A DNA stretch of 64,000 nt from Armatimonadota bacterium (GCA_963677485.1 OY781964.1:3488001-3552000), one strand, 5' to 3'; shown: positions 29,928 through 52,383, counted from the first letter of the stretch. The notes: generated by a model not told the origin, from the sequence alone. Numbers and translations: made by a program.

Positions 29928-32093
29928 TTGAAAAACACCGCGTCTTGTGTAGCTGTATGCCTAGCAATACTCATAACGCTAATTCAAATTCCCGTTTCCG
30001 CATACGCCCAGGGAGGCACCGTCGAAGCCTGGTCAGGATTACGAATCCTTCCGGGTGAACAGAACGGCTTTGTCTCCATATCTGCTGGCGGCGTTTACGC
30101 TGGATTGAAGCGTGATGGATCGATTGTATGTTGGGGTTCACAGATAGATAACATGATGAAGGTGCCCGAACCCAACAGTGGTTTCATAGCTGTTTCAGCG
30201 GGTCGTGAGCAGGTAATCGCCCTCCGAAAAAACGGATCTGTGGTGATATGGGGCCGAAATGACTACGGCCAATGTACCGTTCCTGAGCCAAACAGTGGGT
30301 TCGTTGCGGTAAAAGCCGATGCTTATCATAGCAACAATCCACTTTGTATGGGTATCAAGAGTGATGGATCTGTTGTATATTTTAGCGCGGACACCATTTA
30401 CAATATTGTGTTTACCAATCTCGCTTCGGTCTCATCGAGTTCAAACGACTATGGCTCCAACTATTCAATCGGTGTGAAGACTGACGGATCCTTGATATAC
30501 GATGGCTATGGCGGAACCAGTATGGAACCCCTACCACAACCCAATACCAACTTTACCGCAGTATCATGCGGAGCAAGCCATGCTGCTGCCCTAAGAAAAG
30601 ATGGTTCGATCGTCTGCTGGGGAGAGAACGCATACGGCAAATGCTCTGTTCCTGAGCCAAATACCGGCTTTGTGGAAGTAGCAGCCGGCGTTCAGCATAC
30701 CGTAGGACTGAAAAGCGATGGGTCGGTGGTGTGCTGGGGTTCCAACATCTATGGTCAGTGTACACCGCCTGTACCTAACGAAGGGTTTGTCAAAATCTTT
30801 GCGGTTGGCTACGGCACGATTGGCCTTAAGCGAGATGGATCATATGTCTATTGGGGTATCCGTAACCAATATCTGATGCCAGGACGTAATGAGGGTTTCA
30901 CCAAACTGACCTGTGGTGGTGGTTATATTGCCGGAATGAAGCAAGGTGGCAGCCTCACCGTTTGGGGCGGGCACGGGTATGACGTGTATCCCCTGGATGT
31001 CGTTCCATATCCGAACCAAGACTTTATCGATGTGGCGTTAGGTGACCAGCACGCGATTGCCGTGAAGAGTGACGGGTCGGTGGTCACCTGGGGACGCCAT
31101 GACGACGGCGGATGCACTCTACCTTATCCCAATACGGAATTCAAGGCTGTAGCGGCAACCAAGGCTACTAATCAAGCCTATAACTTAGGGCTAAAAAAAG
31201 ATGGTTCTGTGCTGAGCTGGAACACCGGTAACCTGGCAGCTTATAAGATACCTCAGCCTAATTCAGACTTCACAGCGATAGACGCAGGTGACTACCATTT
31301 CCTGGGGTTGAAGAGTGACGGGTCGATAGTCTGTTGGGGGAGTTCAAGCCCCAGCCTTACCACCGTTCCAGAACCAAATACCGATTATGTTGCCATCGCC
31401 GCCGGCAGCTCGCATAATGTGGCATTAAGACGTGATGGCTCTATAGTATGCTGGAGCCAGTATACTTCTGCTGATATATGCACGGTTCCGGAACCAAACC
31501 AGGATTTTGTGGGCATCGCCGCGGGCTATGATTATTCCTATGGCCTCAAGCGTGACGGGTCTGTGGTGGGTTGGGGATCCAACTATGGGACCACATTTGA
31601 AATGCCAGCTAAGGGGCCCGGTGTGATGTCCATCGCTGCGTTTTATCGTAGTTTACTCATGATTCGCAGCCAGCAGAACGTGCCAGGGCAGATCAGTTTG
31701 AGAGGTTTTACTGGCAGCGTGCCATCTCAACGGTTTACGGCCACCATCACCAGTATGGCTAATCCAGCCCTTAGTCAATGCCTTAATCTGCAACCGCAAA
31801 TTGATGGCCGCTATAACCTGTCAACTTACCTGCAACCGCCATACAATATACGTCTAGCCAGCCCTCACTTCCTCACTGCCAAAGCCACAAATGTGGCACC
31901 AGGGCAGAACACCGGTTTTGAGCTGATCAATGGCGATGCCAATGGTGATGGTCTGATCAATCTGTTCGACTACGTGGTTTTGGACTCTCACTTCAACAGC
32001 AATGATCCGATGGCCGATCTTGATGGTGATGGAAGTGTCAACCTGTTCGACTATGTCATCATCGATCAAGGTTTTGGAGCGTTAAGTGAATAA
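29928..32093 (+). CDS. Secreted RCC1/BLIP-II repeat protein with C-terminal dockerin-like domain (paralog 1)
   Basis: Signal peptide, repeated AG..H..GLKxDGSVVCWG.N..GQC, C-terminal GDANGDGLINLFD...DLDGDGSVNLFD. Confidence 0.88.
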   Translation: MKNTASCVAVCLAILITLIQIPVSAYAQGGTVEAWSGLRILPGEQNGFVSISAGGVYAGLKRDGSIVCWGSQIDNMMKVPEPNSGFIAVSAGREQVIALRKNGSVVIWGRNDYGQCTVPEPNSGFVAVKADAYHSNNPLCMGIKSDGSVVYFSADTIYNIVFTNLASVSSSSNDYGSNYSIGVKTDGSLIYDGYGGTSMEPLPQPNTNFTAVSCGASHAAALRKDGSIVCWGENAYGKCSVPEPNTGFVEVAAGVQHTVGLKSDGSVVCWGSNIYGQCTPPVPNEGFVKIFAVGYGTIGLKRDGSYVYWGIRNQYLMPGRNEGFTKLTCGGGYIAGMKQGGSLTVWGGHGYDVYPLDVVPYPNQDFIDVALGDQHAIAVKSDGSVVTWGRHDDGGCTLPYPNTEFKAVAATKATNQAYNLGLKKDGSVLSWNTGNLAAYKIPQPNSDFTAIDAGDYHFLGLKSDGSIVCWGSSSPSLTTVPEPNTDYVAIAAGSSHNVALRRDGSIVCWSQYTSADICTVPEPNQDFVGIAAGYDYSYGLKRDGSVVGWGSNYGTTFEMPAKGPGVMSIAAFYRSLLMIRSQQNVPGQISLRGFTGSVPSQRFTATITSMANPALSQCLNLQPQIDGRYNLSTYLQPPYNIRLASPHFLTAKATNVAPGQNTGFELINGDANGDGLINLFDYVVLDSHFNSNDPMADLDGDGSVNLFDYVIIDQGFGALSE

Positions 32094-32124
32094 CAACATG
32101 TTTACACACAGAGGAGACATCCAC

Positions 32125-34236
32125 GTGAAATGGACACACAGCCGTATGGCAGCATGGGTATGGTCAGCACTAGTCATTGTAATGACGTGCAGCATATGTC
32201 ACGCACAGAGCGGAACGGTAGAGGCATGGGGTCAACGCCGTGTTCTTCCTGGTAATATTCCTGGGCTTACGGCGGTGCTTGCTGGCAAGAGCCATACGGT
32301 CGGGTTGAAAAGCGATGGATCGATAGTGGCTTGGGGAGATAACACATACGGGCAGTGTGATTTCTCTAACTCGACGGAATCTTTCGTGTCGATCGGGGCA
32401 GGGGTGTCGCAAACATATGGGGTGACTCAAGCCGGCACCATCGTTTGTTGGGGCGACAACCATGACCTGTTGTGCAACGTGCCTTCGCCAAACAATGACT
32501 TTACCAAAGTGGTATCCACTGTGGGTTTTGCAGCCGGCCTAAAGCGAAATGGTTCAGTGATATGCTGGTCAATTATGGGGGCCAATGTCAGCGAACCTAA
32601 CAGCGGTTTCATAGACATCATAGCAGGCGACAAATCTATATTTGGCCTAAAGAGCGATGGGTCAGTCGCCATGTTAAGCACACCAATGAATAGCTGGGAT
32701 CTGCCAAATCCGAATACGGACTTCATTGCGATCGCAGCAGGTGACAGGCACCGAGTAGGCCTAAAAAGAGACGGCTCGATCGTTTGCTGGGGCGATGTAT
32801 GGGGCTACAGTGACAAAGGACAGATGATCGTACCGGAACCCAATACGGACTTCGTGGCCGTGGCTGCCGGTGGCGACTACACTGTAGGGCTTAAGCGTGA
32901 TGGTTCCATAGTCTGCTGGGGTGACACCACCTACAATCGGTGCAAAGTGCCCTTACCGAATCATGATTTTGTATCGATATCCTCAATGGGTGGACATTCG
33001 GTCGCCCTCAAGAAGGATGGAACTGTGGCTTGGTGGGGGACCGAATGTAATGTCCCAGTCGTTAACGAGGGTATTAAAGCCATAGCCACAGGCTACGATC
33101 ATGTCGTGATGCTGAAGCAGGACGGTACGGTGGAGTGTATAAGTGCTTTCCCCGATAACATGCCGGCCGTTCCGCTACCTAACAAGAATTTTACCGACGT
33201 CATCGCCGCTAGAAGCTATGCGGCTGGATTGAAATCAGATGGCTCTATCGTCACTTGGGGGAATTTTAGTGCTGCTAGCTCAGTGTCGGGTACCGGCTAT
33301 ACAGCGATCGTAGGCGGAGGGCAACATATCGCCGCGCTAAAGAGCACCGGCGTTGTGAGGAGTTGGGGCGACAACTGGTTAAAACAGACCGAAATTCCAT
33401 CGCCTAATAGTGGTTTCACAGCGATTGCTGCAGGGGAAAATTTCACCCTGGGGTTGAAAACTGATGGTTCGGTGGTTGGCTGGGGTGATAACCTTGCGGA
33501 TCAGTGCACCGTGCCTCAACCTAACCAGGATTTCATGGCCATCGCCGCCGGATATAACCATTCTGCCGGCTTGAAGCGAGACGGATCGATTGTTTGCTGG
33601 GGTGGAAATACCTTTGGTCAGTGCAACATACCAAGCCCTAACCAGGATTTCGTGGCCGTATATGCCAGTGGTGATAACACTGTCGGAATGAAGCGTGATG
33701 GATCTGCCGTTTGCTGGGGTTATGATGTGAATGGTCAAACCCGCGTGCCTGAACCTAACAACGGGTTTATATCTGTCACACCAAGCAAAGGTGCGATTTA
33801 CGCCATCCGCGCGATGCACCCTGTCTCTGGCCAGGTTGTACTTGGAGATTACCTGGGCGATGTATTAAACCGACCACTCATTGCCACAGTGAGCAGCAGC
33901 GTCAATCCTGTACACAGCCAGAAATTCAGCATGTTGCCACAATTGAATGGTGCATATACTCTGTCAAGCTACCTGCTTCCACCATATGACATCTATATAT
34001 CGAGCCCGCATTTTCTTACGGCCAAAGCGGCTAATACGGCCCCGGGGACAGGAGTGAATTTCACGCTCGTGAACGGCGATGCTAACGGTGATGGTCAGAT
34101 CAATCTGTTTGACTATGTGGAACTTGATACCCACTTCGGCGGAAATGATCCGATGGCCGATCTCGACGGCGATGGGGCAGTCAACCTGTTCGACTACGTG
34201 GTCATAGACCAGAACTTCGGAGCAGTCGGAAACTAG
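32125..34236 (+). CDS. RCC1/BLIP-II-dockerin protein (paralog 2)
   Basis: Same architecture; GTG start chosen after GAGGAG. Confidence 0.88.
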   Translation: MKWTHSRMAAWVWSALVIVMTCSICHAQSGTVEAWGQRRVLPGNIPGLTAVLAGKSHTVGLKSDGSIVAWGDNTYGQCDFSNSTESFVSIGAGVSQTYGVTQAGTIVCWGDNHDLLCNVPSPNNDFTKVVSTVGFAAGLKRNGSVICWSIMGANVSEPNSGFIDIIAGDKSIFGLKSDGSVAMLSTPMNSWDLPNPNTDFIAIAAGDRHRVGLKRDGSIVCWGDVWGYSDKGQMIVPEPNTDFVAVAAGGDYTVGLKRDGSIVCWGDTTYNRCKVPLPNHDFVSISSMGGHSVALKKDGTVAWWGTECNVPVVNEGIKAIATGYDHVVMLKQDGTVECISAFPDNMPAVPLPNKNFTDVIAARSYAAGLKSDGSIVTWGNFSAASSVSGTGYTAIVGGGQHIAALKSTGVVRSWGDNWLKQTEIPSPNSGFTAIAAGENFTLGLKTDGSVVGWGDNLADQCTVPQPNQDFMAIAAGYNHSAGLKRDGSIVCWGGNTFGQCNIPSPNQDFVAVYASGDNTVGMKRDGSAVCWGYDVNGQTRVPEPNNGFISVTPSKGAIYAIRAMHPVSGQVVLGDYLGDVLNRPLIATVSSSVNPVHSQKFSMLPQLNGAYTLSSYLLPPYDIYISSPHFLTAKAANTAPGTGVNFTLVNGDANGDGQINLFDYVELDTHFGGNDPMADLDGDGAVNLFDYVVIDQNFGAVGN

Positions 34237-34323
34237 ATCGAAGCAAATAACCGTTCTGAGATGCCGAAAGACAGGTTATCACGATAACTGGCATCTGAAC
34301 CACCAAACTCGGAGGCCGAAATA

Positions 34324-36471
34324 ATGAAACCAGCAGTTCTACAGCTTAGGAACCAGATCGTCTGTGTGATGTCATTCCTCATGCTTGTGCTTGCCTGTGC
34401 CGCTAGTCATGCCCAGGGCGGAACCCTGGAGGCCTGGGGCAATACACGGATACTACCCGGTGAACAGAATGGGTATGTATCGATATCGGTGGGTGGAGTG
34501 ATCGCAGGGCTGAAACGTGACGGCACTATAGATTGCTGGGGTGCGATATATGATTCTATGCTCCATGTGCCTGAACCGAATGCTGACTTCGTGGCGGTAT
34601 CGGCCGGTCGACAGCAAGTGATCGGCCTGAAAAAGGATGGGTCTGTGGTCATATGGGGGGTGAATGACAAAGGCCAGTGCTCAATTCTAGTGCCGAACAA
34701 CCGATTTGTAGCCGTTCAAGCTGACTTGTGGCACTATAATCTACCGTATGTGGCCGGTGTTAAGGACGATGGGGCGGTGGTCTACTTTGGATATACAGTA
34801 GCGCCCAACCAAGCATTGCATGGGGTTGCATCGCTATCATCTAGTTCGAGCTTCTTCTACCCGCCCTATTCGATCGCCCTTAAAATCGACGGTTCACTTG
34901 ACTACGATGGGTATAGAGAAACGCTTCATGCAACCATACCCCTGCCCAATGAGAACTACGTTGCCGTATCCTGCGGAGCCAGACATGCTGCCGCGCTGAA
35001 AAAGGATGGTTCTATAGTCTGTTGGGGTTACGAAGACAGTGGTCTGTGTGATGTTCCGCTGCCGAACACTGATTTTGTTTCAGTGGTCGCAGGCGAAAAC
35101 TACACCGTAGGATTAAAGCGTGATGGTTCTGTAGTCTGCTGGGGAGATAATGGCTATAACCAGTGTACTCCCCCAGAGCCCAATGAAGGGTTTGTCAGTA
35201 TCCACACGCTTGGGTTCGGCACCGTAGGTATTAAACGCGATGGGTCGTGTGTATACTGGGGGAAGCCTAGTCTCTATTTCATCCCGACAGGAAATAGTGG
35301 ATTCACCAAGATAGCGTGCAACATTAACCGCTTGGTGGGGCTTAAAGATGACGGCAGCATCACATGTTGGGGAGATAATGGGCATCCCGAATTAGGCTTG
35401 AACATCGTTCCAGAACCGAATACGGACTTCGTCGACATCTCCGCCGGCTACCAGCATTCCGTAGGGGTGAAGCGCGATGGGTCTGTGGTCTGTTGGGGCA
35501 GCAATGATTATGGACAATGCACGGTACCGCAGCCGAATACTGACTTTGTCTGCGTTCGTGCCACAGTAAACAGCAATAATGGTCTCAAGAAGGACGGCAC
35601 CATAGTCACTTGGGGGCAAGCCGATCCGGTTCCAGCGCCTAATCGAGACTTCACAGCCATCGCCGTCGGTTACAATCACTTCGTCGGATTGAAGAGTGAT
35701 CATAGTGTCGTTTGTTGGGGGAACAACACCGGCATGCAATGCAATGTGCCAACGCCCAACAGCCATTTTGTCGCCATCGCCGCCGGTCAATATCACACTG
35801 TTGGCTTGAAGGATGACGGCACTGTGGTCTGCTGGGGAGCACGCTCCGACGGGCAATGCACAGTTCCCGAGCCCAACCAAGATTTCGTGGCAATAGCAGC
35901 AAGCGACCAAAACAGTGTGGGCCTTAAACGAGACGGTTCGATAGTCGTCTGGGGATCGGACGCCTCCAAGCAATGTACCGTTCCAGAGCCAAACAGCGGT
36001 TTTCAGAACATCGCAGCGGGCTACCATACTGTTTATGGGATCCGAAGCCAACAGTCATTAGCGGGCCGTATTCTGTTGTCTGGATTAGCTGCTGGTGCCC
36101 CGGTTCGTCCAGTGACCGCCATCATCAACAGCACGTCCAATCCCAGCATCACTCAGTGTCAAGATATCAATCCACTATCGGATGGCACATATTCAGTCTT
36201 CAGTTATCTGAAACCACCGTACCAAATAACACTGTCGAGCCCCCATTTTCTCTCAACGAAAGTGACAGGGGTCGCGCCTGGCACGACCCAAAACTTCACG
36301 CTCGTCAACGGTGATGCGAACGGCGACGGTCAGATCAACCTGTTTGACTACGTGGTGCTGGACACACACTTCAACAGCAGCGATCCGATGGCGGACCTCG
36401 ACGGGGACGGGCAGGTGAACCTGTTCGACTATGTGGTCATCGACCAGAACTTCGGAGCGGTAGGCGAGTAA
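34324..36471 (+). CDS. RCC1/BLIP-II-dockerin protein (paralog 3)
   Basis: Same architecture; GGAGG RBS. Confidence 0.88.
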   Translation: MKPAVLQLRNQIVCVMSFLMLVLACAASHAQGGTLEAWGNTRILPGEQNGYVSISVGGVIAGLKRDGTIDCWGAIYDSMLHVPEPNADFVAVSAGRQQVIGLKKDGSVVIWGVNDKGQCSILVPNNRFVAVQADLWHYNLPYVAGVKDDGAVVYFGYTVAPNQALHGVASLSSSSSFFYPPYSIALKIDGSLDYDGYRETLHATIPLPNENYVAVSCGARHAAALKKDGSIVCWGYEDSGLCDVPLPNTDFVSVVAGENYTVGLKRDGSVVCWGDNGYNQCTPPEPNEGFVSIHTLGFGTVGIKRDGSCVYWGKPSLYFIPTGNSGFTKIACNINRLVGLKDDGSITCWGDNGHPELGLNIVPEPNTDFVDISAGYQHSVGVKRDGSVVCWGSNDYGQCTVPQPNTDFVCVRATVNSNNGLKKDGTIVTWGQADPVPAPNRDFTAIAVGYNHFVGLKSDHSVVCWGNNTGMQCNVPTPNSHFVAIAAGQYHTVGLKDDGTVVCWGARSDGQCTVPEPNQDFVAIAASDQNSVGLKRDGSIVVWGSDASKQCTVPEPNSGFQNIAAGYHTVYGIRSQQSLAGRILLSGLAAGAPVRPVTAIINSTSNPSITQCQDINPLSDGTYSVFSYLKPPYQITLSSPHFLSTKVTGVAPGTTQNFTLVNGDANGDGQINLFDYVVLDTHFNSSDPMADLDGDGQVNLFDYVVIDQNFGAVGE

Positions 36472-36552
36472 CAGCAAGTTTGTGGCAGCCGTGATGGCTG
36501 CCACTCCGATCAAGCTTGGGTACGATCCGATAGGGTATGAGGAGATCATTCA

Positions 36553-38697
36553 GTGAGTAATCGCAAACGGACACTCGTTTATTTTGTAGTGTGTATCATG
36601 GCATTCCTGGCGAATGTTACAGCGAATTCAGATGCTTTGGTGCCGAAAGGTACCGTCGAAGTATGGGGTTTTTGGAAGCAGTTACCTGGAGAGATGACGG
36701 GCTTTACTCAGGTATCTGCAGGTGGAAACCACTCCGCTGGCTTGAAACGCGACGGGTCCATCGTCTGTTGGGGTGGTAACGCCTACTTTATGAGTACAGT
36801 GCCTGCGCCAAACAGGGATTTTGTGGCGGTGTCAGCAGGGAGGAACCACACAGTCGGCTTGAAACGCGACGGTAGTGTGGTTTGCTGGGGAGATAATTAT
36901 GAAAAGCAGTGTAATGTGCCAGCACCAAATGCCGACTTTACGGCCATTGCGGCAGGGAATGAATTCACTCTTGGTTTAAAACGCGATGGTTCCATTGTGA
37001 GTTGGGGCTGGAGAGTGGGTGACCTTCCTGTGCCGCTGCCAAATTCGGATTTCGTGGCGATCAGCGCTAAAGCAGATCATGTGGCAGCACTAAGGCGTGA
37101 TGGCACGATCGTATGCTGGGGAACAAACCTCTACGGACAGTGTGATGTGCCGGGTGAGAACGCGGAATTTGTAGCTGTAGCTGTGGGCACCAATGTAACA
37201 GTAGGTCAGAAACGTGATGGTTCTATTGTTGTATGGGGTGATTGCTCACCGGGTTGGGCAAGCCCACCGGAACCGAATCAAGATATCTCGACGATCGCGG
37301 CAGGCTACAACGGACTGGGAGCGGTAAAACGTGATGGTTCCGTTATCTGCTGGGCACTATATCCCGTCATCCTGCCAGTACCAAACAAGGATTTTGTTTC
37401 AGTGCAGATAGGTACTGGGAACTTCGTTGGATTGAAACGCGACGGCACGGTGGTGTGCTGGGGGCCTAATGGCAATGGGCTGCCTACGCCGGATTTTCAT
37501 AATGACGATTTTGTTGATCTTGCTGGTCGTGGATCTTTCTGGCTCGGACTCAGGAGTAATGGCACACTGACTAAAGTGGGGTGGGGCGACGCTATCGATA
37601 AAGTACCGTTAGTGCCTGATCCTAATACAGGATTTGTAGATGTCGTGATGGGTAAGGACGGGGTATTTCTGGGGTTGAAGAAAGATAGCACGATTGCATC
37701 ATGGTATTTGGACCATGTTGGACTCTCACCCATGCCTGTTCCTGAGCCTAATAGCGACTATACAGCAATTGCGGCTGGAAATGTCGTACGGGCAGGCTTA
37801 AAAAAGGACGGCTCAATTGTGTGCTGGGGTGACAATACCTATGGGCAGTGTACTGTCCCATCTCCCAATCAAGACTTCATTGGAGTAGCAGTCGGATATC
37901 GTCATACAGTCGGTTTGAAAAAAGATGGAAAGATAATCTGCTGGGGCAGTGCTGATGATAACGCCCTATCGGTGCCATCACCAAACGCGAATTTCGTCTC
38001 AGTCTATGCGAGTGATACCCACTCGGCTGGTCTGAGGAGTGATGGAACTGTTGCATGCTGGGGCAATAATACAGCGGGCCAGCTTATTGTTCCGGTTCCT
38101 AATGCCGACTTTACCAGTGTCGCGTTGGGTTCGTATACTTCGATTGCATTACGTAAAGACGGAACAGTTGCATGCTGGGGTAACAATGACGGTGGCGCCC
38201 TGAACATTCCTGAACCTAATGGTGGGTTCATCGCTGTTGCCGCAGGTGAAAGCACCGTGGCCGCAATACGTAAAACTCAGTTGATATCGGGTACCATGCA
38301 GCTCAGTAATTTCCTTGGTACTACTGCCAATCACCAATTTTCCACTACTGTGACTAGCCTTGCGACCCCCGGAGTCACACAGTATCCAGTCATGCTGCCT
38401 GGTGATGGTGGTATATATGCGATATCCACCTACCTGCCACCGCCGTATAACGTCCGTGTCGCGAGCCCTCATTTCCTTGCGGCTAAGGCATCCGGTGTGG
38501 CCGCAGGTCAAGCAACCAACTTCCAACTCACTAACGGTGATGCGAACGGCGATGGCCAGATCAACTTGTTTGACTATGTAGTGCTGGACACCCACTTCAA
38601 CAGCAGCGACCCAATGGCCGATCTGGATGGGGACGGCAGCGTCAACCTGTTCGACTATGTGGTTATCGACCAGAGCTTTGGTGCTGTAGGTGAATAA
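36553..38697 (+). CDS. RCC1/BLIP-II-dockerin protein (paralog 4)
   Basis: Same architecture; GAGGAG RBS. Confidence 0.88.
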   Translation: MSNRKRTLVYFVVCIMAFLANVTANSDALVPKGTVEVWGFWKQLPGEMTGFTQVSAGGNHSAGLKRDGSIVCWGGNAYFMSTVPAPNRDFVAVSAGRNHTVGLKRDGSVVCWGDNYEKQCNVPAPNADFTAIAAGNEFTLGLKRDGSIVSWGWRVGDLPVPLPNSDFVAISAKADHVAALRRDGTIVCWGTNLYGQCDVPGENAEFVAVAVGTNVTVGQKRDGSIVVWGDCSPGWASPPEPNQDISTIAAGYNGLGAVKRDGSVICWALYPVILPVPNKDFVSVQIGTGNFVGLKRDGTVVCWGPNGNGLPTPDFHNDDFVDLAGRGSFWLGLRSNGTLTKVGWGDAIDKVPLVPDPNTGFVDVVMGKDGVFLGLKKDSTIASWYLDHVGLSPMPVPEPNSDYTAIAAGNVVRAGLKKDGSIVCWGDNTYGQCTVPSPNQDFIGVAVGYRHTVGLKKDGKIICWGSADDNALSVPSPNANFVSVYASDTHSAGLRSDGTVACWGNNTAGQLIVPVPNADFTSVALGSYTSIALRKDGTVACWGNNDGGALNIPEPNGGFIAVAAGESTVAAIRKTQLISGTMQLSNFLGTTANHQFSTTVTSLATPGVTQYPVMLPGDGGIYAISTYLPPPYNVRVASPHFLAAKASGVAAGQATNFQLTNGDANGDGQINLFDYVVLDTHFNSSDPMADLDGDGSVNLFDYVVIDQSFGAVGE

Positions 38698-38773
38698 TCA
38701 TAGCAACTCTATAATCGCAGCAATATCCGGAACCTCGACCGAGCACAGAACGCAGATCCTTGGAGGCAAATTC

Positions 38774-43248: not shown

Positions 43249-45558
43249 ATGAAGTTATGGTATCAACAACCCGCCGCACGCTGGGTGGAGGCGCTGCCCA
43301 TCGGAAATGGACGACTCGGCGCGATGCTCTACGGATCGCTGCCCACTGAGCGAATCCAGCTCAACGAAGACACATTCTGGTCAGGATACCCCTATGAGAG
43401 CATCAACCCCAAGGCGTTGGCAGCACTGCCCGAGGTCAGACGTCTGATTGCCGAAGGACAGTACCTGCAGGCAACAAAGCTAGCCGACGATTGTATGATG
43501 GGCATCCCGCTGGGTCTGCAGAGCTACCAAACTTTTGGAGAGTTAGCGATAGAACATGAGGGGCTGGGGTCATATACGGACTACCAGCGCGAGCTGGATA
43601 TCGCAACCGCCGTGACCCGAAGCCAGTTCAACAGCCACGGCACCGTGTTTACCCACGAGGCGTTCGCCTCGCACCCGGCACAGCTCATCGTGATGCGGAT
43701 CACCGCGGATAAGCCAGGCCAAATCAACCTGGACATCAATGCCGAATCACCGCTTGCGGAACGATCATCGGCGGAAGGTCCCCGCTGGGAGGTTAGTGGC
43801 CGATGGCGAAGCGGGTCCGGTGAGACTAGCCTGCCGGGCGAGGGGATACGGTTCGTGATGGCCGTGCAGCCTCGTGTGGAGGGTGGAACCTGCGACATCA
43901 CCGATGCGGGGATATCGATACGGAATGCCGACGAGGCCACCCTCTTCATCGCCGCGGGTACCAGCTATCTGAATGCCAAGGATATCAACGGCGACCCTTA
44001 CCGCAACATAGACCCTCAATTGGCGGCTGCGGTCACAAAGAGCTATGATGAGCTGCTCCAACGGCACATTGTCGACCATCAACGTCTGTTTTCTCGTGTC
44101 AGACTGGAACTGCCGCATTCTCCAAACGAGGCATTACCCACTGATGAGCGTCTGCAGAGGCATCAAGAGGGTGAGACCGACTGTAACCTGGCGGCTCTGC
44201 TGTTCCAATTTGGGCGTTACCTACTGATCGCCAGCAGCCGACCCGGCACGCAGCCGGCCAACCTGCAGGGCATCTGGAACGACAATCTGAACCCCGCCTG
44301 GGGCAGTAAGTGGACATGCAACATCAACACCGAAATGAACTACTGGCCCGCCGAAAGCACCAACCTCAGTGAATGCCATATGCCGCTGTTGAAGATGGTA
44401 GACGAGCTGGTAGAGAGCGGTAGCCGCACCGCGCAGCAGCATTACGGCTGCCGAGGCTGGGTGCTGCACCACAATACGGACATCTGGCACGCCACCACGC
44501 CGGTGGATGGCGCCGGGTGGGGTCTGTGGCCAACAGGCGGAGCCTGGCTGAGCACGCACCTCTGGCAGCACTACCTGTTCACCGGTGACCGTGCGTTCCT
44601 GGGCCAGGTTTACCCGATCATGGCTGGTTCGGCCCGGTTCCTGCTCGACTATTTGACTGAGAATGCCGCTGGGCAGTTGGTGACATTGCCATCCTGCTCG
44701 CCAGAGAACTTTTTTGTCACGCCGGATGGCCAGCGGGCCGGGCTGTGCGAGATGCCCACGATGGACATCGGCATCTGCCGTGATCTTTTTACGGCCTGCC
44801 TGGAGGGTGCCAGGGTTCTGGGCATCACCGACCCCATGACCACTGATATGAGCGAGGCTCTTGTCCGGCTGCCAGCCTATCAGATCGGTCAGCATGGGCA
44901 GTTGCAAGAGTGGCTGCATGATTTTGAGGAGACCGAGCCGCACCACCGCCATATGTCACACCTATACCCTCTCTACCCCGGTATGGAATTTGACTGGTCA
45001 CGCAGTCCTGAGCTGATGGAGGCCTGCCGGGTCACGATGGAACGCCGCGGTGATGTGGCCACAGGCTGGAGCATGGGCTGGAAGGTCTGCCTCTGGGCGC
45101 GGTTATGTGATGGCGACCGCGCCGAACGGCTGATCCGCACGCAACTGCATCTGTGTGATGAGAGCGAGGGGGTCGCACTCACCGGTGGCAGCTACCCCAA
45201 TATGTTTGACGCCCACCCGCCGTTCCAGATCGACGGCAACTTTGGGGCCACAGCCGGTATCGCCGAGATGCTGCTGCAAAGTCATGGCGGGGTGCTGCGC
45301 ATTCTACCCGCGCTGCCGTCGTTGTGGTACAGCGGAGAAGTGCGCGGCCTAGTCGCCCGTGGGGGGATCAGGGTGGACATTCGGTGGCGGGAGGGCAGGT
45401 TGGTGTCTCTGAAGCTGGGCTGCGACCACGTCCAGGAGCTAACGCTGCAGCTTCCCGGTGGTGCCAGACCGAGCGGTGATACGCCACTGAGCGCCAACGC
45501 TGATGGTCTGTGGCACGGCATGTTACCGGTGGGGGACAATCCGTTTATGTTTGCGTGA
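43249..45558 (+). CDS. Alpha-L-fucosidase/alpha-L-galactosidase, glycoside hydrolase family 95
   Basis: [61 protein letters not shown]. Confidence 0.95.
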
Positions 45559-46230: not shown

Positions 46231-47373
46231 ATGTTGACCACCCCAACAACCCAAACAGCACAGCTCGCGATGGACACCATCATGCGCAAACCGGTGAAGG
46301 GCATACCCACCTGGTTGCTGAATATCATGGAACATGACCACATCGACCCCCTGGCGGGGGTACCACAAGGAACCTACCGCGCGAACCCTGAGCCGACCTA
46401 TCTCGCCATGCAGCGCAACATCGGTGTGTGTATGCTGGACCAGTATATCTGGGACAACCCATTGAGCATGGGTCAGGCCGGTTACGAAGGCGCTGTGCAT
46501 GGGGCGACCACAGGCGCAGAGCAGATCATTCTTGACGGGATGTTGATTGACTCCCCGGAAGCGGTGATCGAGCATATGGAGCGATTTGTGTTCCCTGCAC
46601 TCAAGGGGTGGATAAGCAACTTCAACGAAGATGCCCAGTGCCGCCTTATCATCAACCAGGAGATGGCCATCCAAGAAAGCATCGGCCCCGCGATGCTGAA
46701 AACGGGGTATGGGTATATTTCATTCCCTGTGTTTTCGTATGGTCCGTATGGCTATGTGAACTACTTCTCCGCCTATGCGCTCTACCTCGAAGTGATCGAA
46801 AAACACTTCTCGCTTCAGGCCGATCTGGCCTTATTGAACAACCGGGCTGCAGCTCGGGCCATCACTGAAGGTGGCCTTCCGCTCCTCTATCGCCTTGATT
46901 TCGACATGGCGGATTCCCGAGGTACGCTGGTGAACATCAAGTCGCTGGATAGGATCTGGTTCCCGCACTTTGCACGCTGTCTTGAGCCGATACTGAGCAC
47001 TGACATGAACCTCATCTGGCACTGCGATGGCAACCTGATGCAGATGGTGTCGAGGCTGCTGGATGTGGGTATTCGGGGTTTTCAAGGCTTCCAGTATGAG
47101 GACGGGATGGACTACGAAAAGATCTGCCAGATGAAGACGCGAGACGGCGAGGAGCTCATCATTATCGCCGGAGTCTCTGTCACGCGCACGTTGCCGATGG
47201 GCACGCCAGCCGATGTGAAGCGTGAGATGGAGTTCCTGGTCCAACATGGACCCAAGACCGGCTTGTTCCTGGGAGGTTCCAGCTCCGTGGCACCGGGTGT
47301 GCCTTGGGAGAACCTGGAGACCTTCGTGCAGGGGTTGCAATATTACCAAGCCAACGGTCGCACGGGCGATTGA
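46231..47373 (+). CDS. Uroporphyrinogen decarboxylase-fold protein (MtaA/CmuA-like), function unknown
   Basis: DMADSRG, WHCDGNL metal-site motif, LPMGTPADVKRE, GLFLG...VPWENL. Confidence 0.75.
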   Translation: MLTTPTTQTAQLAMDTIMRKPVKGIPTWLLNIMEHDHIDPLAGVPQGTYRANPEPTYLAMQRNIGVCMLDQYIWDNPLSMGQAGYEGAVHGATTGAEQIILDGMLIDSPEAVIEHMERFVFPALKGWISNFNEDAQCRLIINQEMAIQESIGPAMLKTGYGYISFPVFSYGPYGYVNYFSAYALYLEVIEKHFSLQADLALLNNRAAARAITEGGLPLLYRLDFDMADSRGTLVNIKSLDRIWFPHFARCLEPILSTDMNLIWHCDGNLMQMVSRLLDVGIRGFQGFQYEDGMDYEKICQMKTRDGEELIIIAGVSVTRTLPMGTPADVKREMEFLVQHGPKTGLFLGGSSSVAPGVPWENLETFVQGLQYYQANGRTGD

Positions 47374-47887: not shown

Positions 47888-50029
47888 ATGGCTAGTATTC
47901 AAGACTCTCGCATTCAAACAACTCCCATGACGATCTTAGTTTTGCTGATGGTTATCTGCAGCGGTCCATTATCCGCCCAATCGGGCACCATAGAAACCTG
48001 GGGGGCACGGCGCACTCCGCCTGGTGATCTGACGGGGTTTGTATCGGTTGATGGCGGATACCAGCATAACGCAGGCCTCAAGCAAGACGGCTCTGTGGTC
48101 TGCTGGGGCCGAAACGACCAAGGCCAGTGTACAGTGCCCGGCACGAACAGTGATTACATAGCCGTCTCTGCAGGGGACTTCCACACGGTTGGCTTGAAAA
48201 AGGATGGAACCATCGTCGCCTGGGGTTCCAACAGCAATGGACAGTGCAACCTTCCGGCACCCAATCTAAACTTCAAAGCTGTGTCCGCCGGTTACGCATA
48301 TACGGTTGCCCTAAAGAACGATGGTTCTGTGCTTGTGTGGGGTGATAACACCTATGGACAACGCACTGTGCCTGCCCCCAACCAGGATTTTGTAGCCATT
48401 TCCGCCGGTAACAGCCACGTGGTGGGACTTAAGAGCAATGGCACTGTGGTTTGTTGGGGTTCCAACTATTACACTCAGTGTACCGTGCCCGCTCCGAACG
48501 CCAACTTCGTAGCAATTAGTGCGGTTTTGGACCACACTCTCGGGTTAAAAAGCGACGGAACGGTTGTGGCTTGGGGTAAAAACTACAATGGCGAGTGCGA
48601 TATCCCCTTACCTAACGAGAATTACACTGCGATAGCGGCAGGGAGCTTCCACTCTATGGGATTGAAGAAAGATGGCATGGTTGTCTGCTGGGGATATCCA
48701 ACCGAGGGTGCGTTGAATATACCTGCACCGAACCAGGATTTTGCATCTGTCTCAGCCGGGGTGCATTATTCGATCGGCATAAAGCATGATGGCAGTGTCG
48801 TGGCGTGGGGTAACAACTACCATGGGGAGTGCAACCTTCCGGTACCCAATAGCGACATTAAAGCCATTTCTATTGGTGCAAACCACCTTGCAGCACTGAA
48901 GACCGACGGCAGTGTGGTGTGCTGGACCGAAAACATCAAGGGCCAGTGCGATGTGCCTGTCCCCAACCAGGGCTTCACTGCCGTGTCTGCGGGCGGGTTA
49001 CATACGGTAGGATTGAAGACAGACGGCTCCATCGTCATCTGGGGCGATAATGGCAAAGGTCAGCTCAACGTGCCCGATCCGAACAGTGGGTTCACAGCAG
49101 TTGCGGCTGGATATCAACACACAGTGGGGCTCAGGAGTGATGGTTCGGTGTCGTGCTGGGGATACAACTCCTACGGACAGTGTACTGTGCCCGCACCTAA
49201 CCAGGATTTCGCTGCCATTGCTGCCTCCCACAACCATACAGTGGGTTTGAAGCAAAATGGGTCTGTCGTGGCCTGGGGCGACAACAGCAGCGGCCAGTGC
49301 GCTGCGCCAGCATCCAACCAGGATTTCACAGCAGTCGCAGCGGGATGGGCCCATACTGTGGGATTGAAATCCAATGGAACGGTGGTCTGCTGGGGTGATA
49401 ACAGTTATGGGCAGACATCGGTTCCGGCTCCTAACCAGGATTTCATCGCCATTGCTGCCGGTGACTTCCACACAGCCGGGCTTAAGATCGATGGTTCCGT
49501 GGTGGTCTGGGGGTTGCGGCCCGATGGACAGAGCTCAGGACCTGCACCGAACAGCGGGTTTATGGGTATAGCAGCAGGGGCCAACACCACCGCTGCCATA
49601 CGGGGCATGCAGATTATGTCCGGCAATTTGCAGTTGGGCGACTTCGGCGGTGGATTGTCATCGACTCTGGTCACTGCATCCATAAAGAGTGCAGGCATAC
49701 CCGACATCACCCACTGCCTCAGCCTGCTGCCGCAGCCGAACGGGAATTACTCCTTCAGCACCTACCTGCAGCCGCCGTATGACATCCGCGTGAGCAGCCA
49801 GCACTTCCTGACAGCCAAAGCGACGAATGTGGCTGGTGGGCAAAGTGCCAATTTTGCTCTGGTGAACGGCGATGCGGATGGTGATGGCCAGGTCAACCTG
49901 TTCGACTTCGTGGTGTTGGACTCCAACTTCGGTAAATCCATTCCGATGGCAGACCTGGACGGCAACGGGCAGGTGAACCTGTTCGATTACGTGGTCATCG
50001 ACCAGAACTTCGGTGCCAAGGGGGATTGA
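47888..50029 (+). CDS. RCC1/BLIP-II-dockerin protein (paralog 7)
   Basis: 13 full plus two half repeats; dockerin-like tail; AGGAGG RBS. Confidence 0.88.
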   Translation: MASIQDSRIQTTPMTILVLLMVICSGPLSAQSGTIETWGARRTPPGDLTGFVSVDGGYQHNAGLKQDGSVVCWGRNDQGQCTVPGTNSDYIAVSAGDFHTVGLKKDGTIVAWGSNSNGQCNLPAPNLNFKAVSAGYAYTVALKNDGSVLVWGDNTYGQRTVPAPNQDFVAISAGNSHVVGLKSNGTVVCWGSNYYTQCTVPAPNANFVAISAVLDHTLGLKSDGTVVAWGKNYNGECDIPLPNENYTAIAAGSFHSMGLKKDGMVVCWGYPTEGALNIPAPNQDFASVSAGVHYSIGIKHDGSVVAWGNNYHGECNLPVPNSDIKAISIGANHLAALKTDGSVVCWTENIKGQCDVPVPNQGFTAVSAGGLHTVGLKTDGSIVIWGDNGKGQLNVPDPNSGFTAVAAGYQHTVGLRSDGSVSCWGYNSYGQCTVPAPNQDFAAIAASHNHTVGLKQNGSVVAWGDNSSGQCAAPASNQDFTAVAAGWAHTVGLKSNGTVVCWGDNSYGQTSVPAPNQDFIAIAAGDFHTAGLKIDGSVVVWGLRPDGQSSGPAPNSGFMGIAAGANTTAAIRGMQIMSGNLQLGDFGGGLSSTLVTASIKSAGIPDITHCLSLLPQPNGNYSFSTYLQPPYDIRVSSQHFLTAKATNVAGGQSANFALVNGDADGDGQVNLFDFVVLDSNFGKSIPMADLDGNGQVNLFDYVVIDQNFGAKGD

Positions 50030-50259
50030 GGCGAACTTGGGTGGTAACGATGATGATCTCTTGCCACCCGTATACGATGACCCATAATGTGGTGCATACA
50101 TGGAATTGGTAAGTCATAATGCCAGTATTTCATGTGTACATGAATTAGTTCATCACTAGCAGCAGGTATCTTACACACGCAAGAACAATATCATACAATC
50201 AGGTGGCATGAACTGTAATACAACCTACAATGGTCGTTCGGAACGAGCGGAGGGAAGTC

Positions 50260-52383
50260 ATGGATATCAGTTCAAGACTGTTCGTTGCGCGCTTTACATC
50301 ATGGATTATTGGGGTTTCACTAGCTTTATGTGGCTCCATATCCATTGCTCAAGGTGGCACCGTCGAATCGTGGGGTATCCTACGCATTCCGCCCGGCAGC
50401 CTTAATGGCTTTACCTCTGTGGATGCGGGCGACTACTACTCTGTGGGCCTGAAACAAGACGGGTCTATTGCCTGCTGGGGGAGTAACAGCATAGGGCAGT
50501 GTAACGTGCCTGCCCCTAACAGCAGCTTCACTGCGGTCACCGCAGGTTTCGACCATACCGTGGGACTGAAACGGGATGGCTCGGTAGTCTGTTGGGGAAA
50601 TCCTGAAAATGGGCAGCGTAATGTGCCGCTACCGAACCAGAACTTCATCGCAGTGAGTGCCGGACTTCACCATACGGTCGGGTTAAAAAGCGATGGCACC
50701 GTGGTCTGCTGGGGTGAGACCACGCTTGGTGCCAGTTCCTTACCCAACCCGAACCAGGACTTTACCGCTGTGGCGGCTGGTGACTACTTCAACGTGGGCC
50801 TGAAGCGCGACGGCTCGATCGTGTGTTGGGGCTACCTCGTCTACGGCATTGAGAACATTCCAGCTCCCAACAACGACTTTGTGGCGATTGCAGCCGGAAC
50901 GTATCACGCAGTAGCCCTGAAGCGTGATGGCACGATTGTGTGCTGGGGATACAATGCCTACCAACAGTGTGTGGTGCCTGGGACAAACCAAAACTTTGTG
51001 GCGGTGGCCGCAGGTAACTACTATTCCACAGGAATCAAGCGCGACGGCACCATTGTCAGTTGGGGACAGGATGATGCCGGTCAGTGTGGCCCACCAGTGC
51101 CGAACCAGGACTTCATAAACGCCGCAGGTGGACAGTGGCACTCGATCGGCTTGAAACGCGATGGTTCTGTGGTCTGCTGGGGTGACAACGAGTATAGCCA
51201 ATGCAGTATGCCATCTTCAAACCGCGATTTCGTTGCCCTTAAAGCAGGGGGGCAGCATGGAGTCGGGCTGAAGTCGGACGCGTCTGTAATCTGCTGGGGC
51301 TCCAACTACTATAGCCAATGCAGTGTGCCTGCACCAAACACGAATACTGTCGCTATCGATGCTGGGCTAAATTTCACTGCTTTGCTAAAGAGTGACGGCT
51401 CTGTTCGTTGCTGGGGTGATGACATCTACGAGCCTGCATCCAATCAAGGCTTCACTACCATTGCCGCTGGACACAGCTTCTGCGCCGGGTTAAAAAGTGA
51501 CGGCTCCATTGAGATATGGGGAGGGCCTTTTGCGCCACTGCCTCCGGTTGGTTCGATGAACACCAACTTCGTGGCGATCGCGGCAGGATATGATCAGCTC
51601 ATCGGGCTTAAAAAAGACGGCACTGTCTGGACTACAGAATATAACTCTACGCCATCAATGCCAGTTCCCAACCAGGGTTTTACCGCCGTCTCTTCGGGTG
51701 CCTACCACTATTTAGCACTGAAGACCGACGGTTCCATAGTCTGCTGGGGACGTCAAGGCGATGATATTCAACTGGTGCCTGAGCCAAATACGGGCTTCGT
51801 GGCCATCTCAGGAGGTGCTGACCACAGCGTTGGCCTCAAGAGTAATGGTTCGTTGGTGTGCTGGGGGCTCAATGATTACGGCCAGTGCGATGTCCCGTTA
51901 CCAAACAGCGGATTTACCGCGATCTCTGCTGGTGAGCAGTTCACGCTTGCGATCCGGGGTGAGCAGCCGATTTCGGGGCAGGTGCAATTGAGCAAGTTCC
52001 TAGGCAGTATCAGCTCGCAACGCATCACTGCGTCAGTGAACAACCACCAAGATACAACAATCACCCACTGCCTCAGCCTGCTTCCGCAACCGAGCGGGAA
52101 TTACTCCTTATCCACCTACCTGCAGCCTCCGTATGACATCCGCGTGAGCAGCCTGCACTTCCTCACCGCCAAGGCGACGAATGTGGCTGGTGGGCAAAGT
52201 ACCAACTTTGCGCTGGTAAACGGCGATGCAGATGGGGACGGGCAGATCAACCTGTTCGACTTCGTGGTGCTGGATTCCAACTTCGGCAAATCCACCCCGA
52301 TGGCTGATTTGGATGGCGACGGACAGGTGAACCTGTTCGATTACGTGGTCATCGACCAGAACTTCGGAGCCAAGGGGGAGTGA
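50260..52383 (+). CDS. RCC1/BLIP-II-dockerin protein (paralog 8)
   Basis: Same architecture; ATG 50260 after GGAGG. Confidence 0.88.
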   Translation: MDISSRLFVARFTSWIIGVSLALCGSISIAQGGTVESWGILRIPPGSLNGFTSVDAGDYYSVGLKQDGSIACWGSNSIGQCNVPAPNSSFTAVTAGFDHTVGLKRDGSVVCWGNPENGQRNVPLPNQNFIAVSAGLHHTVGLKSDGTVVCWGETTLGASSLPNPNQDFTAVAAGDYFNVGLKRDGSIVCWGYLVYGIENIPAPNNDFVAIAAGTYHAVALKRDGTIVCWGYNAYQQCVVPGTNQNFVAVAAGNYYSTGIKRDGTIVSWGQDDAGQCGPPVPNQDFINAAGGQWHSIGLKRDGSVVCWGDNEYSQCSMPSSNRDFVALKAGGQHGVGLKSDASVICWGSNYYSQCSVPAPNTNTVAIDAGLNFTALLKSDGSVRCWGDDIYEPASNQGFTTIAAGHSFCAGLKSDGSIEIWGGPFAPLPPVGSMNTNFVAIAAGYDQLIGLKKDGTVWTTEYNSTPSMPVPNQGFTAVSSGAYHYLALKTDGSIVCWGRQGDDIQLVPEPNTGFVAISGGADHSVGLKSNGSLVCWGLNDYGQCDVPLPNSGFTAISAGEQFTLAIRGEQPISGQVQLSKFLGSISSQRITASVNNHQDTTITHCLSLLPQPSGNYSLSTYLQPPYDIRVSSLHFLTAKATNVAGGQSTNFALVNGDADGDGQINLFDFVVLDSNFGKSTPMADLDGDGQVNLFDYVVIDQNFGAKGE

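Follow-up and report, generated by a model that had tools for sequence, protein, structure and literature searches.

The 64,000-nucleotide window analyzed here comes from the genome of an uncultured Armatimonadota bacterium and holds an array of eight co-oriented ORFs (R1 to R8; 713 to 740 aa), all on the plus strand and 42 to 56% identical in pairwise comparisons. They share one layout, in which a signal peptide precedes RCC1/BLIP-II repeats of 39 residues (13 complete and a 14th that is split), a ~90-residue beta-sandwich, and a tail with a duplicated Ca loop. ORF coordinates, Pfam matches, and repeat counts thus bear out an earlier note on this DNA, which had described eight ~715-aa co-oriented paralogs of a single layout. 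The array also contains a GH95 gene; two GDSL esterases and two MtaA/URO-D-like genes lie at its flanks, with synteny preserved in a sister genome.

29928..32093, plus strand: R1 (721 aa), signal peptide, 14-blade RCC1/BLIP-II repeats, X-like sandwich, and dockerin tail; sister-genome ortholog 75% identical (aa), dN/dS 0.17
32086..34236, plus strand: R2 (716 aa), start overlapping the R1 end by 8 nt; ortholog 82%, dN/dS 0.16
34324..36471, plus strand: R3 (715 aa); ortholog 90%, dN/dS 0.15
36553..38697, plus strand: R4 (714 aa); ortholog 90%, dN/dS 0.15
38690..40912, plus strand: R5 (740 aa counted from the first GTG, although translation may begin further in), overlapping the R4 end by 8 nt; ortholog 86%, dN/dS 0.12
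40995..43136, plus strand: R6 (713 aa); ortholog 91%, dN/dS 0.17
43249..45558, plus strand: GH95 (alpha-L-fucosidase family) gene, in the same place in the sister genome
47888..50029, plus strand: R7 (713 aa), the paralog chosen for modeling; ortholog 81%, dN/dS 0.11
50230..52383, plus strand: R8 (717 aa); best match in the sister genome 74%, dN/dS 0.10

The anatomy of R7 resolves into six segments, as follows.

47888..47977, plus strand: residues 1-30, signal-peptide-like hydrophobic N terminus ending in LSAQ, low pLDDT
47978..48034, plus strand: residues 31-49, N-terminal half repeat (GTIETWG strand), which probably closes the C-terminal propeller
48038..49558, plus strand: residues 51-557, 13 full 39-residue RCC1/BLIP-II repeats
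49559..49606, plus strand: residues 558-573, C-terminal half repeat, contributing two strands to the last blade
49607..49861, plus strand: residues 574-658, beta-sandwich like the X module of type II XDoc dyads and transthyretin-like domains
49862..50026, plus strand: residues 659-713, dockerin-type tail of two Ca-loop-plus-helix segments

Profile searches and structure prediction agree on the nature of the repeats. RCC1_2 matched 7 to 13 stretches in each of R1 to R8 (Pfam; E, 4e-58 to 5e-120), and WD40_RLD exceeded its 150-bit cutoff in all eight. The repeat period of R7 is exactly 39 residues, and our count of 13 full repeats plus one N-terminal and one C-terminal half repeat is the one given earlier for this paralog; in other paralogs, 13, 20, or 26 repeats were detected, numbers in keeping with seven-blade sets. 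The AF2 model of R7 (pLDDT, 86.5; pTM, 0.80) found its best PDB match in BLIP-II (1jtd_B; Z, 38.7; rmsd, 1.4 Å; 262 residues; 38% identity) within model residues 30..573, and phmmer aligned R7 with BLIP-II at an E value of 4.5e-40. Repeat profiles, together with the seven-bladed fold of the predicted model, place the proteins in the RCC1/BLIP-II superfamily, and according to the models each protein is a pair of BLIP-II-like seven-bladed propellers made from 14 blades of 39 residues. The layout anticipated in the earlier note, with two seven-bladed propellers, an Ig-like sandwich, and an EF-hand-like pair, was thus recovered in the predicted structures. The BLIP-II match spans residues 30..573, while seven-bladed UVR8 (Z, 34.2) aligns to 46..349 and ACR4 to 52..321; judging from these alignment ranges, the second ring is probably completed by the N-terminal strand (velcro closure).

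Loop variability is to be expected in any propeller family, a point that counts against a binding-repertoire reading. The repeat scaffold of the paralogs is conserved (F1, G7, G13-L14-K15, D17-G18, W23-G24, N26, G29-Q30-C31, P34, and P36-N37), and the most variable positions are 8 and 9, after AG, and 25, 27, and 28, after WG (entropy, 3.4 to 3.85 bits). At these five positions F, W, Y, or H accounts for 14 to 40% of residues. In a separate count, 110 of 487 loop residues were of these four types. When BLIP-II interface residues were placed by hand on the phmmer alignment of R7 and BLIP-II, 19 of the 22 that are named in an excerpt of PMC10817188 coincided with the same five positions. The concentration of variability noted earlier therefore holds, and it falls in two loops per blade, the ones that BLIP-II uses against beta-lactamases. 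Identity between paralogs is 11% in the loops versus 71% in the scaffold, and loop identity between sister-genome orthologs is 72%. Between species, dN/dS was 0.19 at loop positions versus 0.17 at other repeat positions, and this sister-genome comparison gave no sign of diversifying selection at the loops. The idea of an interchangeable binder set with variable faces is thus upheld for the concentration of variability, but the loops are under purifying selection rather than evolving fast. Based on the loop dN/dS, we see the paralogs as carrying old, fixed, and distinct specificities, with no arms race.

Comparison with BLIP-II of Streptomyces exfoliatus (PDB 1JTD, 3QHY, and 3QI0) shows what is shared and what is not. 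Both are secreted and seven-bladed, each blade having three strands and ~39 residues, and the variable loops of R1 to R8 correspond to the pair in each blade from which the BLIP-II interface is built. BLIP-II, however, is a single propeller that lacks an X module and a dockerin, whereas the proteins reported here have two propellers and some paralogs have three or four. The residues that, along with picomolar inhibition of class A beta-lactamases, define BLIP-II as a functional family (Trp53, Tyr73, Trp152, Trp269, and others) are not retained; their equivalents are the most variable positions here.

Two D-x-[DN]-x-D-x-x-x-N-L-F-D loops are present in the tail, and 30 sequences show no or almost no variation at the loop positions. 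Each is a 12-residue putative Ca-binding loop (D/N at 1, 3, 5, 9, and 12) followed by a helix, as in dockerins, and the Pfam evidence is marginal: Dockerin_1 (PF00404) scored 18.2 to 26.4 bits against a cutoff of 22.9 in hmmscan, with 3 of 8 paralogs passing, and exceeded the cutoff in all eight in a six-frame genome search, in two of them only with neighboring matches in frame. In the AF2 model of linker plus tail (pLDDT, 86.8; helices at 103-111 and 130-139), the C-terminal 145 residues matched type II XDoc dyads in all of the top 10 PDB matches (E, 1.3e-8 to 2.2e-6; TM, 0.59 to 0.66; ~157 columns), and the next matches covered the beta-sandwich alone, from an E value of 6e-4. The tail also superimposed on dockerin 2y3n_B (rmsd, 1.6 Å; 41% identity). 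An Ig-like X module directly N-terminal to a dockerin is therefore present at the fold level in the predicted model. Tail identity among paralogs is 82%, with nearly saturated synonymous sites (pS, 0.66) and a pN of 0.12, compared with 0.39 in the propeller; the tail is held by strong purifying selection. Fold matches and substitution patterns together support the common dockerin-like tail as a shared, selectively conserved dockerin-type module.

We searched 13,623 ORFs of ≥80 aa with HMMs built from the eight paralogs and recovered 32 propeller ORFs and 70 tail-bearing ORFs from the whole genome; a hydrophobic N-terminal-type window like that of R7 occurs in 64 of 74 ORFs with tail or propeller. 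The array of eight described earlier is real, but the set to which it belongs is larger. Similarly, all eight paralogs share the tail, but it also occurs on ~40 other secreted proteins of unrelated type, including many enzymes, and is thus a lineage-wide tag rather than an array-specific feature. Cargo of the 37 non-propeller tail proteins scanned was mainly TIG (11), FGE-sulfatase-like (6), and peptidases (5); the only glycosidase-associated families were DUF5722 and CHB_HEX_C. The tail-bearing set as a whole takes in peptidases, a phosphatase, and SUMF1-like and IPT/TIG proteins. In 63 of 70 cases the tail ends within a few residues of the C terminus, and in 7 proteins it is internal and followed by an FGE-sulfatase-like domain. 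Tail matches occurred in 17 of 17 family genomes searched (18 to 84 each) versus 2 of 13 in the phylum's other families, and all named matches to the XDoc profile came from Armatimonadota. Propeller homologs number at least 7,870 database proteins, and those of other phyla instead carry SLH, T9SS-CTD, FlgD-Ig, PEP-CTERM, or Ig domains according to Pfam annotation.

Searches for a docking partner were negative at the sequence level. Cohesin PF00963 had no match (E ≤ 1) in this 97%-complete genome and likewise none in 13 genomes of the family, whereas across the phylum it was present in 25 of 151 genomes. Neither an HMM built from the phylum's own cohesins nor the cohesin of a “Candidatus Sumerlaeota” homolog gave a match with an E value of <0.09. 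As no cohesin or other partner was found, the modular binding complex envisaged earlier is not supported, and the cohesin-dockerin pairing within one genome that defines such systems was not seen. The proteins also lack the marks of a cellulosome, namely, a cohesin-repeat scaffoldin and dockerins mainly on plant-cell-wall CAZymes, and the label “non-cellulosomal” fits both the lack of cohesin and a cargo dominated by TIG, FGE-sulfatase-like, and peptidase proteins. Peer et al. (2009) reportedly found orphan dockerins to be widespread. The genome encodes OmpM-like SLH proteins, a TolC-like OEP, and three secretins. The host is probably diderm, and the proteins could therefore be periplasmic.

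Type II XDoc dyads of Clostridium thermocellum CipA and A. cellulolyticus ScaA (PDB 2B59, 5G5D, 4U3S, and 3KCP) resemble the tail in having a beta-sandwich followed by a two-helix, two-Ca-loop dockerin, but sequence identity is only 18 to 20%. Those dyads sit mainly on scaffoldins of Gram-positive anaerobes, whereas here the module is on ~70 binders and enzymes of a probable diderm, and searches of the genome and its family detected neither a type I nor a type II cohesin. The combination of RCC1 repeats and a dockerin in one protein is already known from Cthe_0258 of C. thermocellum, a cellulosomal protein of ~51 kDa listed as (RCC1)5 dockerin-bearing with no assigned function in a table entry of PMC6083626; it has five annotated repeats and occurs only once in its genome, which encodes many cohesins. 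In freshwater Planctomycetes, a hypothesized surface assembly, the “planctosome,” resembles the present system in that non-cellulolytic bacteria bear dockerins on peptidases and binding modules; as excerpted from PMC6461901, it includes cohesins, which the present lineage lacks as far as sequence searches show. A protein from a “Candidatus Sumerlaeota” MAG (P0025) has ~12 to 13 RCC1 repeats and then a dockerin; it shares 48% identity with R7 across 72% of its length. It differs in lacking a detected X module and in carrying, after the dockerin, a cohesin for which this genome yielded no relative.

Taken as a whole, we favor, at a probability of roughly 0.55, a reading in which R1 to R8 are double-propeller binders of fixed specificity, tethered by the XDoc tail to one common envelope receptor. 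In each blade, the loops at repeat positions 8-9 and 25-28 would contribute to a face matching the BLIP-II target clamp. Because the loops differ almost completely between paralogs yet are kept between species, each paralog may recognize its own ligand, either protein or glycan. The C-terminal 145 residues would act as an X-module-plus-dockerin dyad, the same module being on ~70 secreted proteins, and could tether all its carriers to a single receptor that is not a recognizable cohesin, possibly displaying them at the cell surface. This last suggestion draws on the analogy with type II XDoc modules and on the SLH, T9SS, PEP-CTERM, and Ig anchors that replace the tail on propellers of other phyla.

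The ligand question allows a glycan-based variant that is compatible with a docking tail, in which the propellers provide lectin-like glycan capture for a polysaccharide degrader, like CBMs or surface glycan-binding proteins. The fucosidase gene inside the array, its syntenic esterase and MtaA/URO-D-like flanks, a GH78 rhamnosidase and GDSL gene near another group of tail-bearing genes, the aromatic-rich loops, the seven-bladed bacterial lectins among the fold matches (Z, 14.6 to 16.3), and the (RCC1)5-dockerin cellulosome component tabulated in PMC6083626 all point this way. We hold it as a tentative possibility, given that lectin scores are far lower than those of the nearest solved relatives (BLIP-II, UVR8, RCC1, and ACR4), which bind proteins or peptides, that most other arrays lack CAZyme neighbors, and that a Pfam scan of R1 to R8 (E ≤ 0.01) found no CBM family. 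It is unlikely that the tail serves instead as a Ca-dependent folding or stability element, or directs export or sorting along a dedicated route in the manner of the T9SS C-terminal domain, with no docking. Its usual C-terminal position, the preceding beta-sandwich (as in T9SS CTDs), the lack of a cohesin, and the need of a probable diderm for a route across the outer membrane are consistent with such a role, but the internal tails before FGE-sulfatase-like domains, the dockerin followed by a cohesin in the Sumerlaeota homolog, and the gap between XDoc and subsequent fold matches argue for docking. Moreover, neither T9SS-CTD (PF18962) nor PEP-CTERM (PF07589) was found in R1 to R8 (Pfam, E ≤ 0.01), the genome's five PEP-CTERM matches lying elsewhere.

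A structural, S-layer-like coat with no specific ligand would suit an abundant, paralogous, secreted family with SLH-domain homologs in Paenibacillus that are named as such by NCBI. We consider it very doubtful: loops that are particular to each paralog yet kept across species point to specific recognition, the same tail occurs on peptidases and a phosphatase, and none of the searches turned up a characterized S-layer relative. The least probable role is BLIP-II-like inhibition of competitors' beta-lactamases, penicillin-binding proteins, or other enzymes. The second propeller does resemble BLIP-II closely, and the variable positions coincide with its interface, but the interface residues are exactly those that differ between paralogs, and 32 copies with different faces are ill suited to a single enzyme target. 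The thousands of database proteins that share the propeller further indicate that BLIP-II is one specialized member of a very large family.

Returning to tethered binders of fixed specificity, we read the system as a lineage-specific variant of two things already known, bacterial secreted RCC1 propellers and orphan non-cellulosomal dockerins. R1 to R8 would then be one local block in a lineage-specific expansion of secreted, non-catalytic, putative binding proteins.

Eight plus-strand ORFs of 713 to 740 aa (R1 to R8) encode the propeller paralogs of the window, and they lie where the earlier note had placed them. The genome is a single contig of 5.22 Mb, and the paralogs, which are 42 to 56% identical to one another overall, form two blocks with the following surroundings.

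Paralogs and neighboring genes (window positions)
27156-29501: gene for a 781-aa secreted protein without a family match, upstream of the paralogs
29928-43136, + strand: six tandem paralogs, R1 to R6
43249-45558: GH95 gene, between the two paralog blocks
46231-47373: URO-D/MtaA-like gene (URO-D fold, weak MtaA/CmuA methyltransferase similarity), between the two paralog blocks
47888-52383, + strand: two further paralogs, R7 and R8
52978-54081: second URO-D/MtaA-like gene (URO-D fold, weak MtaA/CmuA methyltransferase similarity), downstream of the paralogs
54262-56751: two GDSL esterase genes, downstream of the paralogs

Overlaps of 8 nt join R1 to R2 and R4 to R5, and the remaining gaps among R1 to R6 measure 81 to 87 nt. 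A scan of window 29000-55000 found no terminator-like (intrinsic) site between R1 and R6, with promoter and terminator counts at or below shuffled expectation. The GH95 gene, the two URO-D-fold genes, and the two GDSL esterases may make up a module that handles decorated glycans (fucosylated, acetylated, or methylated); no neighbor gene recurs beside the other arrays of this genome. NCBIfam contains no family matching R6, R7, or the upstream 781-aa protein. Two adjacent ORFs at 24382-26100 and 26091-26762, which match the beginning (66% identity) and the end (52% identity) of the 781-aa gene, look like a frameshift-split tandem duplicate of it, and two more paralogs, likewise without a Pfam or NCBIfam match, occur elsewhere in the genome. 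At the start of the window (366-5402, - strand) are four consecutive ORFs of 415 to 427 aa with successive 4-nt overlaps and no Pfam match; an ABC ATPase gene (5399-6298) lies immediately upstream of them.

Pfam recognized 7 to 13 RCC1_2 stretches and a marginal Dockerin_1 match in each paralog, and in a six-frame genome search Dockerin exceeded its cut-off in all eight tails. R7 repeats with a period of exactly 39 residues: residues 51-557 hold 13 full units, with one half repeat on the C-terminal side and another (GTIETWG...) on the N-terminal side, following the signal peptide. A repeat HMM found 12 to 14 units in each of R1 to R8 and 13, 20, or 26 in other genomic paralogs, counts that agree with groups of seven blades if one blade is split. 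R7 was modeled with AF2 from an alignment of 14 sequences (pLDDT 86.5, pTM 0.80), and the model has BLIP-II as its best PDB match (Foldseek E 3e-28; VIA-align Z 38.7, rmsd 1.4 Å over 262 residues, 38% identity), followed by UVR8, RPGR, HERC2, RCC1, and the ACR4 "crinkly" ectodomain. Based on the ranges of the model that align with seven-bladed UVR8 (46..349), ACR4 (52..321), and BLIP-II (262 residues within 30..573), we infer that R7 would comprise two seven-bladed rings, the N-terminal strand completing the final blade of the C-terminal ring; residues 303-573 also match BLIP-II by phmmer (E 4.5e-40). The double-propeller interpretation made from sequence alone thus holds in the predicted structure.

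Per-position entropy was calculated for the 105 repeats of the eight paralogs and for 441 repeats of all 32 genomic propeller ORFs. The conserved scaffold consists of F1, G7, GLK 13-15, DG 17-18, WG 23-24, N26, GQC 29-31, P34, and PN 36-37, and the maxima fall at positions 8, 9, 25, 27, and 28 (3.4 to 3.85 bits), where F/W/Y/H account for 14 to 40% of residues; these values bear out the earlier description of an invariant scaffold with variable, aromatic-rich residues. A BLIP-II study (PMC10817188) lists 22 residues in contact with TEM-1 and/or Bla-1, all of which fit the BLIP-II chain at an offset of 38 when the truncated entry "Tyr19" is taken as Tyr191. Placed on the repeat register by hand, 19 of these 22 occupy position 8, 9, 25, 27, or 28 (the others are Gly49, Asn51, and Thr57), and the variable positions therefore correspond to the face that the solved relative uses for binding. 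Cysteines C22 and C31, which bracket the variable 25-28 loop, are both present in 186 of 404 repeats, one is present in 143, and neither in 75. An obligatory intrablade C22-C31 disulfide is unsupported, as co-occurrence is weak (odds ratio, 2.7) and the repeats are not independent.

The same-genus sister genome G001 (5.3 Mb) carries a syntenic array of about 20 paralogs (3185561-3218764) versus 8 here, and its best matches to R1 to R8 share 74 to 91% protein identity, similar to the flanking genes (80 to 89%). Because synonymous sites are saturated among paralogs (pS about 0.8), pairwise Nei-Gojobori dN/dS was computed against G001 orthologs. Values were 0.10 to 0.17 for the eight paralogs and 0.07 to 0.19 for five neighboring genes; by region, they were 0.19 at loop positions, 0.065 at 16 scaffold positions, 0.17 at other repeat positions, 0.16 in the linker, and 0.076 in the tail. 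Loop positions are identical in 11% of comparisons between paralogs (171/1,545) and in 72% between orthologs (346/482). The picture suggested by these comparisons is one of old paralogs, each probably with its own binding face held by purifying selection. A repertoire of diversifying loops, as previously proposed, is not what we found: the loop dN/dS of 0.19 reflects purifying selection, and the comparison of the two genomes gave no sign of an arms race at pairwise resolution. Ortholog dS is uneven, at about 0.29 to 0.34 for R3, R4, and R6, 0.9 to 1.6 for R1, R7, and R8, and 0.47 to 0.91 for neighbors, which could stem from interspecies recombination or mis-paired orthologs. Among paralogs, the tail shows 82% protein identity with pS of 0.66 and pN of 0.12, versus a pN of 0.39 in the propellers; since its synonymous sites are near saturation despite this identity, selection, rather than recent gene conversion, is what keeps the tail conserved.

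The idea of a dockerin-like tail was refined by modeling the C-terminal 145 residues with AF2 from 30 sequences (pLDDT 86.8). Type II X-module-dockerin (XDoc) dyads, from CipA/CipB of C. thermocellum and ScaA of A. cellulolyticus, fill all of the top ten places among the PDB matches to this model (E 1.3e-8 to 2.2e-6, TM 0.59 to 0.66). The dockerin part alone superimposes on 2y3n_B with an rmsd of 1.6 Å and 41% identity, both Ca loops reading D-x-[DN]-x-D-x-x-x-N-L-F-D, and the sandwich alone resembles transthyretin-like domains. The tail is thus of dockerin type, as proposed, and is better described as part of an XDoc-like dyad used across the lineage.

HMMs built from the eight paralogs and run genome-wide detected the tail in 70 ORFs, the linker in 36, and propellers in 32, with propellers and tail together in 28, so that the proposed eight-member repertoire with a common tail stands for the window and is part of a much larger family. 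The four propeller-only ORFs are three broken genes and one (TIG)14 protein with a single propeller and no tail. The broken members lie at G000:C1:3218256-3222089, 2087166-2089322, and 3242667-3247847 of the contig; a 511-aa ORF, present again at 4242332-4243867 and 3224720-3226255, interrupts one of them, and in each of the other two a lone in-frame stop codon (TAA, TGA) separates the propeller from linker plus tail. Enzymes are among the cargo of the tail proteins without a propeller.

Pfam cargo of 37 tail proteins without a propeller (families may co-occur; five tail-only ORFs of <150 aa left out)
IPT/TIG: 11 proteins
FGE-sulfatase-like: 6 proteins
Peptidases: 5 proteins (M6, S8 twice, C1 plus lectin twice)
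Alkaline phosphatase, DUF5722, CHB_HEX_C, laminin_B, ice-binding-like, beta-helix, DUF3466: 1 protein each
None beyond dockerin or EF-hand: 12 proteins

The linker-plus-tail profile gave 18 to 84 matches per genome in all 17 genomes of the same family searched and a single match in each of 2 of 13 phylum genomes from other families. In a 5.8-billion-protein collection, the XDoc profile matched 140 proteins at E ≤ 1e-8 among 7,999 candidates scored, and all named matches were "Armatimonadota bacterium"; none of the 120 matches listed has a precomputed cohesin domain.

The partner that the earlier note expected for the tail was a cohesin scaffold. Pfam Cohesin occurs in 25 of 151 phylum genomes, some with 13 to 18 copies, and gave no match in 13 genomes of this family or, at E ≤ 1 for PF00963, in the genome under study (97% complete). 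The latter also returned nothing with an Armatimonadota cohesin HMM (10 segments from six loci, full sensitivity; best E, 0.098) or with the cohesin of P0025, an RCC1-dockerin-cohesin protein of a Candidatus Sumerlaeota MAG (phmmer; best E, 0.39). A cohesin scaffold detectable by these searches is thus missing. Complex predictions for two copies of the XDoc module gave scores of 0.01 and 0.02 (mark, 0.42), which speak neither for nor against a complex. A screen for scaffoldin-like proteins (fragment repetition plus Pfam) yielded solely IPT/TIG-repeat, CBM4_9, ankyrin, NRPS, and GH20 proteins. Four tandem SLH paralogs of 609 to 665 aa (G000:C1:1641600-1652529) were rejected as scaffoldins, each having one N-terminal SLH domain and one of them a weak OMP beta-barrel match; they resemble OmpM-type proteins that tether the outer membrane to the cell wall. 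These paralogs, a TolC-like OEP, and three secretins jointly point to a diderm envelope, and because the envelope is apparently diderm, surface exposure of the tail-bearing proteins is assumed.

A different reading, to which we assign a probability of roughly 0.2, is that this Armatimonadota family uses cohesin-independent docking, in which XDoc on 18 to 84 secreted proteins per genome would serve as the plug by which binders and enzymes attach to a receptor with another fold. The FGE-sulfatase-like (C-type-lectin-fold) domain is one candidate receptor. Of the 70 tails, 63 sit at the C terminus and seven are internal, and in these seven this domain directly follows the dockerin (e.g., 379284-382127 and 865175-866638; one is RCC1x14-X-Doc-FGE), whereas in the Sumerlaeota homolog a cohesin stands at that place. 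The domain also occurs, 54% identical, as a small lipoprotein with a canonical lipobox (LLAGC) at 1023794-1024684. The other candidate is the group of IPT/TIG repeat proteins that lack the tail. Two such secreted proteins with scaffoldin-like repetition, one of 1601 aa with 14 IPT/TIG and a single RCC1 propeller (G000:C1:3032949-3037754) and one of 826 aa with 8 IPT/TIG (G000:C1:3039312-3041792), are encoded between two clusters of tail-bearing genes. Should cohesin-independent docking prove true, a diderm phylum would possess a surface "plug-board" of a new kind, whose recognition subunits would be double propellers of fixed specificity, 30 or more in number.

Secreted bacterial RCC1/BLIP-II propellers are very common, and to our knowledge almost none has an established ligand. 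R7 has at least 7,870 relatives at E ≤ 1e-10; among the matches listed, near-full-length architectural matches come only from Armatimonadota MAGs (37 to 45% identity). Pfam annotation of the 120 matches listed shows the double propeller of other phyla joined to SLH, T9SS C-terminal domains, FlgD-Ig, PEP-CTERM, Ig/I-set, cadherin-like, or TIG, and in two cases to an FGE-sulfatase domain. Such lineage-typical anchor swapping on one binding body is expected of surface-displayed binders, and mainly because anchor modules swap on homologous propellers, XDoc is by analogy probably the anchor of the Armatimonadota lineage. Earlier publications describe RCC1/BLIP-II propellers as a large, for the most part bacterial group (PMC9218822), extracellular RCC1 giant proteins in Oscillospiraceae (bioRxiv 10.1101/2023.11.21.568195), and the (RCC1)5 dockerin protein Cthe_0258 among C. 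thermocellum cellulosomal proteins (PMC6083626; Pfam list in bioRxiv 10.1101/066357). They also propose non-cellulosomal cohesin-dockerin assemblies in Planctomycetes (PMC6461901) and report cohesin and dockerin domains as absent from Fervidibacter sacchari (PMC11535203), which was the single statement located on these domains in Armatimonadota. Literature searches on dockerin in Armatimonadetes/Armatimonadota or RCC1 with dockerin found no description of the XDoc-propeller family, a variant of two known kinds that is specific to this lineage.

The family offers a natural panel of some 30 paralogs in one genome, with one scaffold, differing species-conserved binding faces, and a common handle. 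That handle resembles the cellulosome-anchoring XDoc dyad, yet the family genomes have no detectable cohesin, and the partner of XDoc would show either how far cohesins diverge or another class of dockerin receptor.
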